From Acidobacteriota bacterium (GTDB lineage Bacteria > Acidobacteriota > UBA6911), in contig JAISUT010000047.1 of NCBI GenBank assembly GCA_031271905.1, positions 26,350 through 90,349 on the forward strand: DNA of 64,000 nucleotides, written 5' to 3'. How positions within the stretch are numbered: position 1 is the first letter of the stretch; each line of letters starts with the position of its first letter. Shown here in pieces: positions 20,871-34,681 of the stretch. The notes under the pieces were generated by a model. That model did no database searches. It saw nothing but the letters and a program-made list of their open reading frames with translations, and had not been told where the DNA came from. The position numbers and the translations under genes are program-made.

Positions 20871-21890
20871 ATGAAATCTCTGAAAAGCGTTTTGAAAGAC
20901 AGCGTGATTATGGGCCAGAAGGGGTTCACCCTCCTCGAACTCCTAGTGGTCGTCGCCATCCTGGCGGCCATCGCCGGCACCGCGGCCATCGCCTTGCAGG
21001 ACACCGACGCGCGCGCGTCCGCAGCGGCGCACGTCGCCATGATGGACGAGCTCAACAAGGGCGTGGCGACCTACCGCGTCCTGCACAAGAACGTCTACCC
21101 CGACAACTTCGACTCGTTGGCGTATGTGAATGACGCCAGCACCGATACTGCGGTAAATGGCGTGCTGTTACCACAAGAGGATGACGCCTCCGCTGGTGCC
21201 AATGGCGACATCCTTGGTTTTTCTGTAGATGACATTGCGCTGGGCACACTGATTGCTGGCGCTGAAGATTCTTTAGCGGATATCGGCATCACCAAGTTGC
21301 GCTATGTCAATGCCGCTTTTGACAACACCGATCTTCCCGAACTTACTCCGACTGAGAATTGCGACCCTGCTGGTGGCGCACTTCAGAAAGTCATCTCCAG
21401 CCGACGGAACAATATTGTCGCTGGGAATATCTTCAACGGTCCCGCCGCCAATGGGTGCGGTGCAAGTTTGGATATTGTTGCCGGTGCACAGGTTGCGTAT
21501 TGGGTCGGATCACTTGAACGTGTACTTGGCCCCGGTGAATATGGCGATGCCGCATTTTCTGGAACGGCCATGGCCTCAAATTCCAGTGTCCCGGCTGGTG
21601 TCACTGCACCTATTCTTATGGCGGTTGGTTTCGGTCCTGCCTCCGACCTGTTCAAGCCTGAGATCCTGGGCAGCATGACTTCCGTTCCCGTGTACCGTCA
21701 TGTCCGCGAAGACCAGTACAATCGTTTCATTGGGCTCTTCCGTGTCGGTGAAGCAACGACTACGGGGTCGGATGTTTGGGCGGCACCCACCACGACCGAG
21801 CAGGTGCTGTTCGTCGGCGTGGTCGATGGCGCCGGCGACACCAAGGAGGAAGAGCTGGGCGAATGGGACGGCACCCGCAGCACCATCTAA
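20871..21890 (+). CDS. prepilin-type N-terminal cleavage/methylation domain protein (pilin-like, 339 aa) with an unusually long 18-aa leader
   Basis: MKSLKSVLKDSVIMGQKG|FTLLELLVVVAILAAIAG: class III signal with the G/FTLLE motif. AAAGGAAC RBS. A strong terminator follows the gene. Confidence 0.75.
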   Translation: MKSLKSVLKDSVIMGQKGFTLLELLVVVAILAAIAGTAAIALQDTDARASAAAHVAMMDELNKGVATYRVLHKNVYPDNFDSLAYVNDASTDTAVNGVLLPQEDDASAGANGDILGFSVDDIALGTLIAGAEDSLADIGITKLRYVNAAFDNTDLPELTPTENCDPAGGALQKVISSRRNNIVAGNIFNGPAANGCGASLDIVAGAQVAYWVGSLERVLGPGEYGDAAFSGTAMASNSSVPAGVTAPILMAVGFGPASDLFKPEILGSMTSVPVYRHVREDQYNRFIGLFRVGEATTTGSDVWAAPTTTEQVLFVGVVDGAGDTKEEELGEWDGTRSTI

Positions 21891-21916
21891 CCCACCATCG
21901 ACGCAACCTCCAACAC

Positions 21917-21985
21917 GGGGCGGCTATGGCCTAGCCGCCCCGCCCCACCGCGCGGCCGGCTCCCATCGCCGGCCGCGCCTTTTTC
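21917..21985 (+). terminator. tandem hairpin intrinsic terminator downstream of the pilin gene
   Basis: Hairpin GGGGCGGCTA-tggcc-TAGCCGCCCC, then GCGCGGCCGGC-tcccatc-GCCGGCCGCGC followed by CTTTTT. Confidence 0.7.
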
Positions 21986-22102
21986 ACAAGTCCGCAACGC
22001 CGGCCCCGCCCCTTCGTCCATCCGCGTTTTGGGAAGCAGCCGCAATCAAAGACGATGAGTTGGAATGGACGGAGGACGCCGTGACAGCCAAGGATGAACT
22101 GT

Positions 22103-32158: not shown

Positions 32159-32160
32159 CG

Positions 32161-32736
32161 ATGTCCATGGAACGTATGCGGCGCAAGTCCGGCGTCCGCC
32201 GAATGGCGGTGCGTCTGCTGGTTTGCGCATGGGCGGCGACGACCGCCCCGGCGGTTTCCGCCCAGGCGTCACAGGCGGGGGGAGGCGTGGGCGCGGCGGT
32301 GGAGGAGGGCCAGCGGCGGCGAGACGACGCCATGCGCAGGGCGTTGGACGTGGACGCGGACACGGCGAGCGAGGACGAGGGGGGCGCAGGGGGGCGCGGC
32401 GCCTCGCGCCGCCCCGCCCCGCGCGAGGAAGCCCGACCGCTGCGCGACCCGTTCTCGCCCGTCGGCGCATTTGACGACGCCGAGTTCCGCGCCGGCGGGA
32501 TGCAACGCGCGCAAGACATCCCCAAGATGCGCTTGCGCGGGCACCTGAAGGTCAGAGGCGGCGAGACGATCGCCTTGCTGGAGATCGTGGGCGGCGGCGT
32601 CCACATCGTGCGCGAAGGGGACACGGTGGGGCTGTACGACCTGGGGCTGGATTCGGTGATCCGCATACGGAAGATCGACAAGCTGCACCTGGTGGTGGAG
32701 TCGGGCTCCCTGGGCAAAACCATCATCGTGAGGTAG
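32161..32736 (+). CDS. exported PilP/GspC-like protein
   Basis: Signal peptide, an Arg/Asp/Gly-rich linker, and a C-terminal beta domain (IALLEIVGGGVHIVREGDTVGLYDL...). AGGGGGGG RBS. Confidence 0.4.
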   Translation: MSMERMRRKSGVRRMAVRLLVCAWAATTAPAVSAQASQAGGGVGAAVEEGQRRRDDAMRRALDVDADTASEDEGGAGGRGASRRPAPREEARPLRDPFSPVGAFDDAEFRAGGMQRAQDIPKMRLRGHLKVRGGETIALLEIVGGGVHIVREGDTVGLYDLGLDSVIRIRKIDKLHLVVESGSLGKTIIVR

Positions 32737-32749
32737 GAGGGGAGGGAAA

Positions 32750-34681
32750 ATGCGGTTGCCATCGAGAGAAAGTCGCAAACGGGCGGGGACGGGCGCGGTC
32801 ACGCGCAGGCGGCCGCAGACGGCGGGCAAGTCCATCGCCTGCGCGCTGCTCCTGCTGCTCGCGACCACGCCGGGCGTCGGCGCGGTCGCCGCACCCCCCG
32901 AAGACGCCCCGTCGCAGGAGACCGTCCTCGACACGGTGGAGTTCAAGCAGGCGCGGATACAGGACGTGGTGCGCACCATCTCCGAACTGACCGGCGTCAA
33001 CATCGTCGCGACATCCGAAGCCGGCAGGAAGGAGGTCACCCTGTTCGTCCGCAACGCTTCGGTCGCCGAGATCGTGGACAGCGTCTGCCGCATCGCCAGC
33101 CTCTGGTACCGCTACAACCCTGAAACCGGGGTGTTCATCGTCATGACCGCCGAGGAGTACCAGAAGGACATCGTGGTCTACCGCGACGAGCTGGTGCGCA
33201 TCTTCCAACTGCAATACCTCAACGTCGGCGTCGCCGCGCGCGTCGTCGCCGACCTGTTCGGCGACCGGGTGGAGCTGCTCGGGCGCGCCAACCGCCACCT
33301 GGGCGACGACTTCCGCATCTCGTCGTCGGACGCCGACAGCGAGTCCGTCTTCGAGGACGACTACGACGAGGGGGACATGGAGGGCGGGAGCGGTTACGGC
33401 GGCTACAACGGCTCGTCGGGCGGTTATGGTTCGAGCGGGCGGCGGCGTTCGCGCTCCTCGTCATCCTACAGCCGCGACTCCCGCTACGGCAGTCGCAGCC
33501 AGAGGGGCGATGAGATCCAAGGGCTCAGGGACGAGAAGCTGACGCCGGAGCAGATCGCGCGGCTGGAGGCGAGCACGGCGGGTTCGCAGATGGTCGCCGA
33601 GGGGACGGTGGGGCGGATCGTGCAACGGGGCGAGTCGGCGACCATCTACGTGACCGTCAACCGTCCGCACAATTTGCTGCTGGTGCGCACCTCGGACGAA
33701 AAGGCGATGGCGGAGATCGAGAAGATCATAAAGGCCTCCGACCGGCAGACGCCGGAGGTGCTGCTGGAGATGAAGGTGCTGGAAGTCCGGCTGACCGACG
33801 AGTTCCAATCGGCGTTCGACATCAGCGGCCTGACGGGCGCCACCCAGACGGGCCCCGCCGACGGACAGCCCGCCAACCCGCTGGACACGTCGTCCAGCTC
33901 GTCGCGCACCGCCGTGCTGGGGCTGGGCAACGGCACGCTGCAAGGCGGGTCGATGATCTTCCAAGTCCTGAGCGGCAACCTGCGCGCCCGCATGCAACTG
34001 CTCGAACGTGAAAACAACGTCAGGATGCTCGCCACCCCCATGCTGCTGGCGGCGAACAACCACCCGGCGCGGCTTTTCATCGGCGAGGAGACGGTCATCA
34101 CGACCGGCTTCGAGACGCAGGGCCAGGGCGGCGGGGTGGACGGCGCCTACATGGTCGTCAACTCGATCCCCGTGCCGGTCACCGAGGTGCGCAGCCTCGG
34201 CAACACCCTGTCGATACTCCCGTCCATCAACGCCGACCGCTCCGTGGTGATGCGCATCGTGCATGAGAACTCCACCATACACCCCGGCGGCGGCAGCATC
34301 CCCATGCCCATCGGGAGCAGGCTGGAAAACGTGGCCGTGGACACGGTGGACACCTCGCGTCTGGAGGGGACGGTGCTGGCGATGGACGGCATGACGGTCG
34401 CGGTGGGGGGGATGATGCGCACCACCAGCAGCAACGACAAGTCGAAAGTCCCGGTGCTGGGCGACGTGCCGCTGTTCGGCTTCCTCTTCCGCGACCAGAC
34501 GAAGTCGGAGGTCAAGACCGAACTCGTGTTGTTGATCACGCCGCACGTCATCAGCGCCCCCGACCAGGGGGAGGATGTGACGCGGCGGAGCCTGACGGGG
34601 TTGCGGGAGACGATGCTGCAACATCCATACGAGTTGGACATCTACATCGACAAGCAGGGACAAGGAGGGGAAGGAAGATGA
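32750..34681 (+). CDS. secretin (GspD/PilQ family) outer-membrane channel
   Basis: C-terminal secretin domain ...VPVLGDVPLFGFLFRDQTKSEVKTELVLLITPHVI. N-domains plus an unusual RS/GY-rich low-complexity insert. Confidence 0.85.
   Translation: MRLPSRESRKRAGTGAVTRRRPQTAGKSIACALLLLLATTPGVGAVAAPPEDAPSQETVLDTVEFKQARIQDVVRTISELTGVNIVATSEAGRKEVTLFVRNASVAEIVDSVCRIASLWYRYNPETGVFIVMTAEEYQKDIVVYRDELVRIFQLQYLNVGVAARVVADLFGDRVELLGRANRHLGDDFRISSSDADSESVFEDDYDEGDMEGGSGYGGYNGSSGGYGSSGRRRSRSSSSYSRDSRYGSRSQRGDEIQGLRDEKLTPEQIARLEASTAGSQMVAEGTVGRIVQRGESATIYVTVNRPHNLLLVRTSDEKAMAEIEKIIKASDRQTPEVLLEMKVLEVRLTDEFQSAFDISGLTGATQTGPADGQPANPLDTSSSSSRTAVLGLGNGTLQGGSMIFQVLSGNLRARMQLLERENNVRMLATPMLLAANNHPARLFIGEETVITTGFETQGQGGGVDGAYMVVNSIPVPVTEVRSLGNTLSILPSINADRSVVMRIVHENSTIHPGGGSIPMPIGSRLENVAVDTVDTSRLEGTVLAMDGMTVAVGGMMRTTSSNDKSKVPVLGDVPLFGFLFRDQTKSEVKTELVLLITPHVISAPDQGEDVTRRSLTGLRETMLQHPYELDIYIDKQGQGGEGR

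Follow-up and report, generated by a model that had tools for sequence, protein, structure and literature searches.

A probable type IV pilus-like machine with long-leader prepilins and a linked MoxR-DUF58-TgpA-FTR1 module in an Acidobacteriota bacterium

Six bacterial classes of type IV filament are usually recognised (PMC10191384). A gene cluster of an Acidobacteriota bacterium (assembly GCA_031271905.1, contig JAISUT010000047.1) raises the question of whether a machine built from the parts of such filaments, with prepilins of unusual size and leader length, is a pilus or a secretion system. The window analysed here is the 64-kb stretch of this contig from position 26,350 to 90,349 (~67% G+C); positions given below without a locus name are those of the window. 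The cluster probably encodes a type IV pilus-like filament machine from a distinct clade which lies between the type IVa pili (T4aP), the type II secretion systems (T2SS) and the mannose-sensitive haemagglutinin (MSHA) pili. The locus was mapped by open reading frame (ORF) calling, G+C content at third codon positions (GC3) and inspection of start sites (Table 1).

The generic hallmarks of a type IV filament are present, namely pilins with class III signals, an ATPase of the GspE/PilB family and a platform protein of the GspF/PilC family. The first-pass annotation had named GspE, GspF and a secretin, and the Pfam matches are unambiguous: the ATPase matches T2SSE (E = 6e-116) and MshEN (E = 1.4e-11), the platform protein matches T2SSF in two copies (E = 2.5e-55), and the secretin carries the Secretin domain (E = 4.6e-37). 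Judged from its genes, the assembly machine is complete apart from a prepilin peptidase and a retraction ATPase. Assignment to a class was tested with the NCBIfam equivalog models for T2SS, T4aP and MSHA and their curated cut-offs. The ATPase scores 455 bits with GspE (cut-off 630) and 442 with PilB (676); the platform protein scores 293 with GspF (424) and 224 with PilC (700); the secretin scores 170 with GspD (351), 116.5 with MshL (250.2) and 109 with PilQ (284). Among the pseudopilin models, the best scores of the three pilins are 27.8 for GspG (88.85), 25.4 for GspH (80) and 16.3 for GspJ (64.85), and none of the three matches GspI or GspK. The profile searches therefore place no component in canonical GspC-M, all equivalog scores being well below cut-off. 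Compared with the sequences of PDB structures, the ATPase scores 356 bits with PilB/PilF, 328 with GspE and 107 with BfpD; the secretin scores 76 with GspD and 54 with PilQ. Two likenesses count towards a pilus: the ATPase is slightly nearer to PilB than to GspE, and the alpha-1 helix of pilin 1 matches T4a major pilins. Binding of cyclic di-GMP (c-di-GMP) by the MshEN domain of the ATPase was considered; judged by eye, conservation is poor in the first of the two 24-residue motifs and partial in the second.

All three prepilin-type proteins carry the G↓F(T/S)LLELLV motif (the arrow marks the cleavage site) and exceed the TIGR02532 cut-off of 16.3 bits, with 30.0, 18.7 and 22.7 bits for pilins 1, 2 and 3; the corresponding E values for Pfam N_methyl are 4.9e-7, 4.4e-3 and 2.7e-5. 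Their motif, their large size and their long leaders, all three noted in the first-pass annotation, stand. In T4a pilins leaders are shorter than 10 amino acids (aa) and the proteins ~150-160 aa long, and type IVb leaders are ~15-30 aa (PMC3927602); leaders of 15-30 aa are known both in type IVb pilins and in the T4aP of S. sanguinis (PMC3927602, PMC10191384). The leaders found here are MKSLKSVLKDSVIMGQKG↓FTLLELLVVV in pilin 1 (18 aa from the first ATG), MPKARRFKTREPGTGTDSG↓FSLLELLVV in pilin 2 (19 aa, behind an AGGAGG ribosome-binding site) and MRIQGYRGIGDCEPGTDDG↓FTLLELLVA in pilin 3 (19 aa). In pilins 2 and 3 the stretch from the upstream stop to the G↓F site contains a single ATG, GTG or TTG; this leaves 19 aa as the only possible leader length, which can be regarded as established. 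Pilin 1 has an internal ATG at M14 which would give an alternative 5-aa leader, MGQKG↓F. The upstream start is favoured because a Shine-Dalgarno (SD)-like GAAAGGAA and the ATG behind it are conserved in a syntenic close relative (locus L019), because the length difference between the two pilins is in frame, and because both leaders resemble others of the family. In the window and in L019 alike, the SD-like motif precedes the upstream ATG and not the internal one. The leader in L019 is MNTEHKNTFDRIMKSSQKG, and the internal start there would give MKSSQKG↓F. Both leaders begin much like longer ones in the family, for instance MNMKSILKNFDRIDA (MKSLKSVLK... against MKLLKSIL... and MNMKSILKNFDRI...). 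An 18-aa leader is thus probable for pilin 1. Among orthologues, leaders of 13-19 aa were seen in nine loci, and a single start codon fixes several of them. The long N-termini accordingly hold up against the suspicion of mis-called starts, through the single starts of pilins 2 and 3 and the upstream SD-like motif of pilin 1. As a separate observation, pilin 3 has a net acidic leader (25372-25428), its 2 Arg being outnumbered by 4 Asp/Glu; by the positive-inside rule such a charge is uncommon in a cytoplasmic leader, and orthologue leaders are basic.

Longer leaders still are found in the wider family of pilin 1. More than 640 homologues were found at E<=1e-3, almost all of 300-390 aa, and the best 120 are 48-72% identical. 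The mature N-terminus (FTLLELLVVVAILAAIAGTA...) is near-invariant and the C-terminal DGAGDTKEEELGEWDGTR motif invariant. Leaders of 36-45 aa occur in 78 of the 115 homologues that bear the motif, with modes at 38 and 40-42. They follow the pattern M.F....K..K.L..KF......D.IQDAELR.K..KLK.AKQGG↓F, have a net charge of about +5 and share 48% mean pairwise identity. Such leaders are basic and probably helical (...DIQDAELRAKA.KLK.KQGG↓FTLLE). The 18-aa leader in the window is a short member of this series; the 7-aa leader of one homologue (P0014) results from truncation at a contig edge.

The subunits are atypical in other ways, as had been remarked. The AlphaFold2 model of pilin 1 has a mean predicted local distance difference test score (pLDDT) of 87.8, and its head has no fold match among PDB structures. 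With the pilin 1 profile, matches to T4a major pilins (geopilin, MshA, PilE and PilA) are confined to their alpha-1 helix, and no pseudopilin is matched. A search of PDB sequences with pilins 2 and 3 gave nothing useful beyond the alpha-1 helix, and no match at all for pilin 3; pilin 2 orthologues are 45-54% identical. GC3 is 0.64 in pilin 1 against 0.79-0.94 in its neighbours. This codon bias could reflect high expression or a recent exchange of the pilin gene. Downstream of pilin 1 lies a hairpin of 11 GC pairs with the tail CTTTTTCACA. The gene's own flanking signals and deviant codon usage are compatible with a highly expressed major subunit, without proving one. The least GC-rich bin of the region is at 20-22 kb (0.61).

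The inner-membrane proteins are less easily named. Pfam and NCBIfam at default thresholds gave no match for the 622-aa protein, the PilO-like protein, the PilP-like protein or the small proteins. An AlphaFold2 model of the 622-aa protein, built with 12 homologues (pLDDT 74.5, predicted template modelling score 0.61), has an alpha/beta domain at residues 35-385, a long helix at 410-487 with a hydrophobic WPWAAIALLALGFAG, and an alpha-beta-beta-alpha-beta-beta domain at 499-582. The closest fold to the cytoplasmic domain is PilM, and there is no GspL family match. The predicted structure thus has the PilM-like domain, membrane helix, coiled coil and alpha-beta-beta repeat domain of the PilM-PilN fusion that had been proposed from the sequence, and the protein is predicted to have a PilN/GspL (GspL/MshI-type) architecture. 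The count of homologues, 12 in a word-indexed search, rose to 411 (243 at E<=1e-30) when 1.84 billion representatives were searched exhaustively with a profile. Nearly all have 550-700 aa and align end to end, which indicates that the fusion is the conserved state of a small but real family. A metagenome scan with the fusion alignment gave three loci only, the peptide patterns being too specific. The fusion is not itself new, because PilM plus PilN is the known architecture of GspL/PulL in T2SS (PMC10191384).

Support for the remaining two names is uneven. The PilO-like protein has a single N-terminal membrane helix; its orthologues match T2SSM_b in four of eight cases (best E = 0.0024) and T2SSM in two of eight, all below threshold, and a weak PDB match is to PilO (3jc8_Oa, E = 0.28). 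These matches support the PilO/GspM call weakly. Paralogy between PilN and PilO was considered and gained no support, as an hhalign alignment of the PilO-like profile with that of the fusion protein was not significant (probability 0.5%). The PilP-like protein has a signal peptide and a conserved C-terminal beta-rich domain; its sole family match is Pfam PilP (E = 0.33), a PDB profile search with the family found no match, and the earlier PilP/GspC call is carried mainly by gene position.

Whether the machine could retract depends on PilT. A gene of ~360 aa lies between the PilO-like and ATPase genes in 17 of 17 related loci in which the junction is visible (12352-13449 in L001), and in relatives its product passes the NCBIfam PilT/PilU cut-off, with 393 and 407 bits against 319. 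In the window, the PilO-like stop and the ATPase start (29262/29264) are separated by a clean 1-nucleotide (nt) gap with no pseudogene debris. The window copy has lost PilT and is the sole exception among the 18 loci; it is therefore either non-retractile or dependent on a PilT with its gene elsewhere. Because all 17 related loci keep PilT, the family is best read as a retractile pilus. T2SS and MSHA are themselves placed as descendants of T4aP by PilT loss in an evolutionary scheme (PMC10191384). For the PilT-less window copy, sequence alone does not decide between pilus and secretion, and the ambiguity noted at first sight holds there, while the family itself is best read as a pilus.

The filament genes were found in 20 further loci with the same gene set and largely the same order. 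The carriers include Verrucomicrobiota (Cerasicoccus frondis, C. maritimus and one Verrucomicrobiota metagenome-assembled genome, MAG), Gammaproteobacteria (Thioflavicoccus mobilis, Neptunomonas japonica and Motiliproteus), Desulfobulbus elongatus, Pelobacter propionicus and a Rhodoferax MAG. Further MAGs are labelled Geobacter, Geobacteraceae, Chromatiales, Sedimenticolaceae and Yoonia, and the remainder are unlabelled metagenome contigs. A literature search found nothing on type IV filaments of Verrucomicrobia or on unusually long leaders. In three relatives a small T2SSG-type pseudopilin (126-160 aa) is encoded next to TgpA/FTR1, at 13361-13747 in P. propionicus (L020), 9522-10004 in the Rhodoferax MAG (L021) and 9394-9774 in D. 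elongatus (L023); none is encoded in the window. In these three, the small protein might be the real major subunit.

Four genes that the first-pass annotation had passed over follow the secretin gene and travel with the filament genes. MoxR matches AAA_3 (E = 4e-60). DUF58 is the usual partner of MoxR, and the DUF58-like protein scores 22.2 bits against a cut-off of 23.4 and is 54-59% identical to its orthologues. The TgpA-like protein matches TgpA_N (E = 8e-50) and Transglut_core (E = 2.8e-17). In an alignment with P. aeruginosa TgpA (PDB 6g49), its GGAEYLA near residue 420 falls opposite GFCAHYA, so that Ala stands in place of the catalytic Cys. Cys occupies the catalytic column in none of 120 TgpA homologues (Ala 75, Ser 19, Val 13), and His is kept in 115 of them. 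The absence of Cys from all 120 defines a Cys-less subfamily which is presumably non-catalytic. The permease matches FTR1 (E = 4.9e-21) and scores 110 bits with EfeU, under the cut-off; it has the REXXE motifs REGLE146 and REGAE264. MoxR-DUF58-TgpA adjoins the filament genes in 12 of 12 loci that were found through the fusion or pilin 1 and have the flank visible; in T. mobilis and D. elongatus the TgpA locus, retrieved on its own, turned out to be contiguous with the filament genes. The linkage also occurs in both loci picked from the TgpA side (P. propionicus and the Rhodoferax MAG). The loci concerned are L001, L005-L008, L012, L014, L016, L017 and L020-L023. It persists where the PilP-secretin pair has moved (L016) and where the module is inverted (L012, L014 and T. 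mobilis). FTR1 follows TgpA in eight of eight loci with the flank visible. A literature search gave no report of TgpA and MoxR with a pilin. Near related loci (flanks of L012, L013, L014, L020, L021, L022 and L023), genes for imelysin (Peptidase_M75), DHOR, a DtxR-type Fe repressor, PccH, a multihaem cytochrome and FMN_bind recur.

Three small conserved genes had also been overlooked. The 71-aa protein (…HDGYGNIQVEMRILHRGQKEVIIHCGKQYRFVVD…) is 52-73% identical in nine related loci, always just 5' of pilin 1, and has no Pfam family; as speculation, it might pair with the long leader or have a regulatory role. The 100-aa lipoprotein is 32-64% identical in 11 loci (at least 51% in 10) and has no Pfam or NCBIfam match. 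Its gene sits between pilins 1 and 2, or upstream of pilin 1 in L011, and by inference only it is a candidate pilotin. The 192-aa exported protein is ~45-58% identical in most loci and 22-43% in L011, L012 and L014, with no Pfam match.

How does the cluster compare with known systems? T4aP differ in that PilM and PilN are fused here, all genes form one locus, and equivalog scores fall below cut-off. The cluster pilins have 270-390 aa and 18-19-aa leaders (up to 45 aa in the family), against ~150 aa and <10 aa in T4aP (PMC3927602). No PilY1 or FimU-PilVWX set is present in the cluster, and the pilin 1 head fold is unmatched in the PDB. T2SS are resembled in the GspL/PulL-type fusion (PMC10191384), the sub-threshold T2SSM match of the next gene, the best models being GspE, GspF and GspD, and the lack of PilT in the window; they differ in that only three pilins and no GspG/H/I/J/K set are present, and in that GspE, GspF and GspD stay below cut-off. 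The single locus, the MshEN-type N-terminus of the ATPase and the secretin match to MshL recall MSHA, in which MshI is PilM/PilN-like. However, MshL is below cut-off, the pilins here are much larger, and MSHA lacks the PilT that the present family has; no domain of MshM (ExeA-like AAA) or MshN (TPR) was found in the cluster genes, where the only AAA+ protein is MoxR. Type IVb pili (Tcp, Bfp and Cof) share long leaders (15-30 aa) and larger pilins (PMC3927602), and the 36-45 aa of the family leaders exceed even that range (PMC3927602). In contrast to type IVb, the mature N-terminus here is Phe within a T4a-type FTLLELLVV, and the ATPase is only distantly similar to BfpD, which it matches at 107 bits as compared with 356 for PilB. 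Parts of PilM/N/O type take the place of TcpR/D, and the locus has no dedicated peptidase.

The only fitting description found comes from Pelobacter carbinolicus and P. propionicus, where Aklujkar et al. 2012 (PMC3543383) annotated Pih as a 'type IVa pilus'. Its one locus has three unusually large pilins with the PilD motif, a fused 'ATPase and membrane protein' (PihI), PihJ/K, a secretin, retraction and extension ATPases and a platform protein (PMC3543383). The retraction ATPase has its counterpart only in the relatives and not in the window; P. propionicus carries the present family. The Pcar genes (Pcar_0863-0877) differ in their order (I-J-K-L-M-E-G) and add a PpiC isomerase (PihF), a motif-less 'major pilin' (PihA) and a putative peptidase (PihH). 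None of these three was recognised here, Pfam having found no PpiC or peptidase domain in the window cluster. MoxR, TgpA and FTR1 are not mentioned in the source paper (PMC3543383). The cluster is probably related to the Pih pilus, with which it agrees well in described gene content. Pih appears in a single paper, a genome annotation, with no experimental follow-up found. A looser parallel is the atypical T2SS of Geobacter with its OxpG pseudopilin, on which reduction of Fe(III) oxide depends (Mehta 2006, as summarised in 10.1101/668343 and PMC3543383). It too is an iron-linked exporter of filament type, and loci related to the present one carry a T2SSG pseudopilin and cytochromes; those summaries report no large pilins or MoxR/TgpA module. 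Identity with the Pul/OxpG system was ruled out, since PulM, N, O, P and Q are encoded separately there and its pseudopilins (PulG, OxpG and TklG) are small.

A type II secretion-like exporter is the foremost rival explanation. The pilins would then form a short periplasmic pseudopilus driving at least one folded substrate out through the secretin, perhaps a protein with a part in iron or mineral acquisition, and no surface fibre would be made. Like T2SS, the window is without PilT (PMC10191384); the top NCBIfam models are GspE, GspF and GspD, the GspL-type fusion stands next to a gene with sub-threshold T2SSM likeness, some related loci have small T2SSG-type pseudopilins, and Geobacter offers a precedent in OxpG and Fe(III) oxide reduction. 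However, all 17 related loci have a true PilT, the pilins number only three (270-390 aa), none of them reaches the GspG/H/I/J/K cut-offs, and all scores are far below the equivalog cut-offs. Pfam found no PDZ-containing GspC in the cluster, the alpha-1 helix of pilin 1 matches major pilins of type IV pili, and the conserved gene set encodes no candidate substrate. We judge an exporter unlikely, though it deserves to be taken seriously. Decay is a different matter. The window copy might be a decaying or inactive remnant which has lost PilT, taken in a foreign hydrolase gene and kept no peptidase nearby; it is alone among the 18 loci in being without PilT, the opposite-strand hydrolase gene breaks the pilin 1-lipoprotein junction, and GC3 of pilin 1 is 0.64. 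Yet none of the 17 conserved genes is broken or shortened, their GC3 is of the coding type, and start and stop codons overlap or lie close together; the PilO-ATPase junction is a clean 1 nt, perfect CRP-type sites are kept upstream, and T2SS and MSHA work without PilT (PMC10191384). A remnant is very improbable. Least credible of all is that the long leaders are annotation artefacts and the true ones an ordinary 5-7 aa. The internal ATG of pilin 1 and that of its counterpart in L019 would allow this, but pilins 2 and 3 offer no alternative start, nor do several orthologues with leaders of 13-17 aa; the conserved 36-45-aa leaders of 78 of 115 homologues, at 48% mean pairwise identity, and the SD-like motif before the upstream ATG also speak against it, and the one 7-aa leader (P0014) is a truncation.

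Several points weigh against the reading as a type IV pilus-like machine, and they should be set beside it. The cluster family is known from genes alone, and no member has been studied experimentally. No PilT is encoded within the 64-kb window. Nor is a prepilin peptidase, in agreement with the first-pass annotation: Pfam found no Peptidase_A24 in ~50 window ORFs, no hydrophobic ORF in the six frames of the window has a motif of the GGGD[VI]K type, and none was found in the first 17 related loci fetched. Activity would consequently depend on genes outside the window. The secretin and platform protein score higher on T2SS than on type IV pilus models (170 against 109, and 293 against 224), and the fused PilM-PilN with its GspM-like neighbour has the GspL/GspM architecture of T2SS. 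The PilP/GspC-like assignment is mainly positional, with topology in support. Finally, the GspG-like pseudopilin of some relatives means that the large pilins might be minor subunits, which is how Aklujkar et al. 2012 took the large Pih pilins (PMC3543383).

If the cluster does encode a pilus-like machine, its working can be modelled on the established mechanism of type IV filaments. The three large prepilins would insert in the inner membrane with their 18-19-aa leaders in the cytoplasm, and a peptidase encoded elsewhere would cleave after Gly-1, exposing Phe+1 and leaving Glu+5. The GspE/PilB-type ATPase and GspF/PilC platform would polymerise pilin 1; pilins 2 and 3 would probably be priming or tip subunits. 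The fusion and the PilO/GspM-like protein would make up the inner-membrane alignment complex, which the PilP-like protein would link to the secretin, and the 100-aa lipoprotein may serve as the secretin pilotin. As to function, gene association is the only guide. The filament genes appear to be co-transcribed and co-inherited with MoxR, DUF58, Cys-less TgpA and FTR1, which points to a role tied to iron uptake or envelope assembly. A bolder proposal takes the 17 conserved genes as one functional unit, a type IV filament for iron acquisition or for contact with extracellular iron minerals. The fibre or an exported substrate would feed the FTR1/EfeU permease, MoxR/DUF58 and the dead TgpA would be assembly factors, control would lie with the CRP/FNR family, and the long leaders would form a cytoplasmic control element, possibly bound by the 71-aa protein. 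This proposal is tentative, and as a whole we consider it doubtful.

Table 1. Positions of the cluster genes and associated sequence signals in the window
Feature	Position	Strand	Remarks
Palindrome TGTGACCCTGGTCACA	18954-18969		Upstream of DAHP synthase gene
Palindrome TGTGACCCTGGTCACA, identical	20210-20225		Upstream of 71-aa gene and pilin 1
Conserved 71-aa cytoplasmic protein, function unassigned	20411-20626	+	Precedes pilin 1
Pilin 1, 339 aa, candidate major subunit	20871-21890	+	N_methyl, TIGR02532
Terminator-like GC hairpin then T-run	21950-21978	+	3' of pilin 1; consensus match only
Alpha/beta-hydrolase gene	22103-23080	-	Hydrolase_4, E = 1.4e-15
Palindrome TGTGACCGAGGTCACA	23238-23253		370 nt upstream of the operon's first gene
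Palindrome TGTGACCTCAGTCACA	23472-23487		136 nt upstream of the operon's first gene
Conserved 100-aa putative lipoprotein	23623-23925	+	Signal ...LLFTGC
Pilin 2, 270 aa	23962-24774	+	TIGR02532
Conserved 192-aa exported protein, function unassigned	24782-25360	+	N-terminal signal peptide
Pilin 3, 390 aa	25372-26544	+	N_methyl, TIGR02532
PilM-like domain / membrane helix / coiled coil / PilN-like domain fusion, 622 aa	26563-28431	+	
PilO/GspM-like bitopic membrane protein, 235 aa	28555-29262	+	Sub-threshold T2SSM/T2SSM_b
Extension ATPase (GspE/PilB family), 552 aa, N-terminal MshEN	29264-30922	+	T2SSE
Inner-membrane platform protein (GspF/PilC family), 410 aa	30926-32158	+	Two T2SSF copies
PilP/GspC-like periplasmic protein, 191 aa	32161-32736	+	Mainly position and topology
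Outer-membrane secretin, 643 aa	32750-34681	+	Secretin domain
MoxR-type AAA+ ATPase	34678-35613	+	AAA_3
DUF58-like protein	35613-36548	+	DUF58 just sub-threshold; conserved position
TgpA-like membrane protein, Cys-less transglutaminase core	36574-38658	+	TgpA_N, Transglut_core
FTR1/EfeU-family iron permease, 402 aa	38674-39882	+	FTR1; extra N-terminal periplasmic domain

All cluster ORFs are intact, high in GC3 and tightly packed. Every gene named in the first-pass annotation is present, at the position and on the plus strand given there; the three small conserved genes and the four-gene module were missing from it. The layout given there needs correcting: the minus-strand hydrolase gene splits off pilin 1 from the other genes, and the operon does not end at 34681. 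Intergenic gaps in 23623-39882 are -4 to 36 nt, bar one of 123 nt; the MoxR start overlaps the secretin stop (ATGA), and the packed genes run on to 39882. The hydrolase gene interrupts an otherwise conserved junction of pilin 1 and the lipoprotein gene, and it looks like a lineage-specific insertion, since this junction is free of any gene in the related loci. The window gave no matches in Rfam and tRNA scans. Nearby, the window has c-di-GMP-type signalling genes (GGDEF, 1691-2998; EAL-HDOD, 2999-4255; hybrid histidine kinase, 4237-6252) and a sub-threshold PilZ-like ORF (41392-41796). A rubrerythrin gene (39979-40521) follows FTR1.

The palindromes of the window have the CRP/FNR-type form TGTGAC-N4-GTCACA. 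Perfect TGTGA-N6-TCACA sites number four, against 0.01 expected from shuffles, and all lie between 18.9 and 23.5 kb. The D. elongatus locus (L013) also has four such sites (2510, 6825, 9054 and 9381), which adjoin a cNMP-binding/HTH_Crp_2 gene and pilin 1, and a Crp-family regulator is encoded in L019; no Crp gene was found in the window. A candidate Fur box at 23536 matches at 12 of 19 positions, no better than background, and was rejected. A 3-deoxy-D-arabino-heptulosonate 7-phosphate (DAHP) synthase gene adjoins the system in the window (19124-20173), in L019 (1603-2646) and in P. propionicus (L020, 18152-19267). In the window, this gene is bracketed by the two identical CRP-type palindromes.

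Beyond the first-pass annotation, the analysis adds the family leaders of ~40 aa, the unmatched pilin head, the obligatory linkage to MoxR-DUF58, Cys-less TgpA and FTR1, and the CRP-type sites. The family has all the hallmark parts of a type IV filament, yet it fails the curated thresholds of T2SS, T4aP and MSHA, and it mixes a T2SS-like fused PilM-PilN with a PilT like that of type IV pili. It has pilins two to three times as large as usual, and the head of pilin 1 is predicted to have a fold without a solved counterpart. Leaders of 36-45 aa raise the question of what role so long a leader has before it is cleaved. Cultured carriers (Cerasicoccus, Neptunomonas japonica, Thioflavicoccus mobilis, Pelobacter propionicus and Desulfobulbus elongatus) make genetics and cryo-electron tomography feasible. 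The linkage of the filament genes to MoxR-DUF58, Cys-less TgpA and FTR1 spans at least four phyla and every locus examined, and it gives a testable tie between a pilus-type machine and iron physiology.

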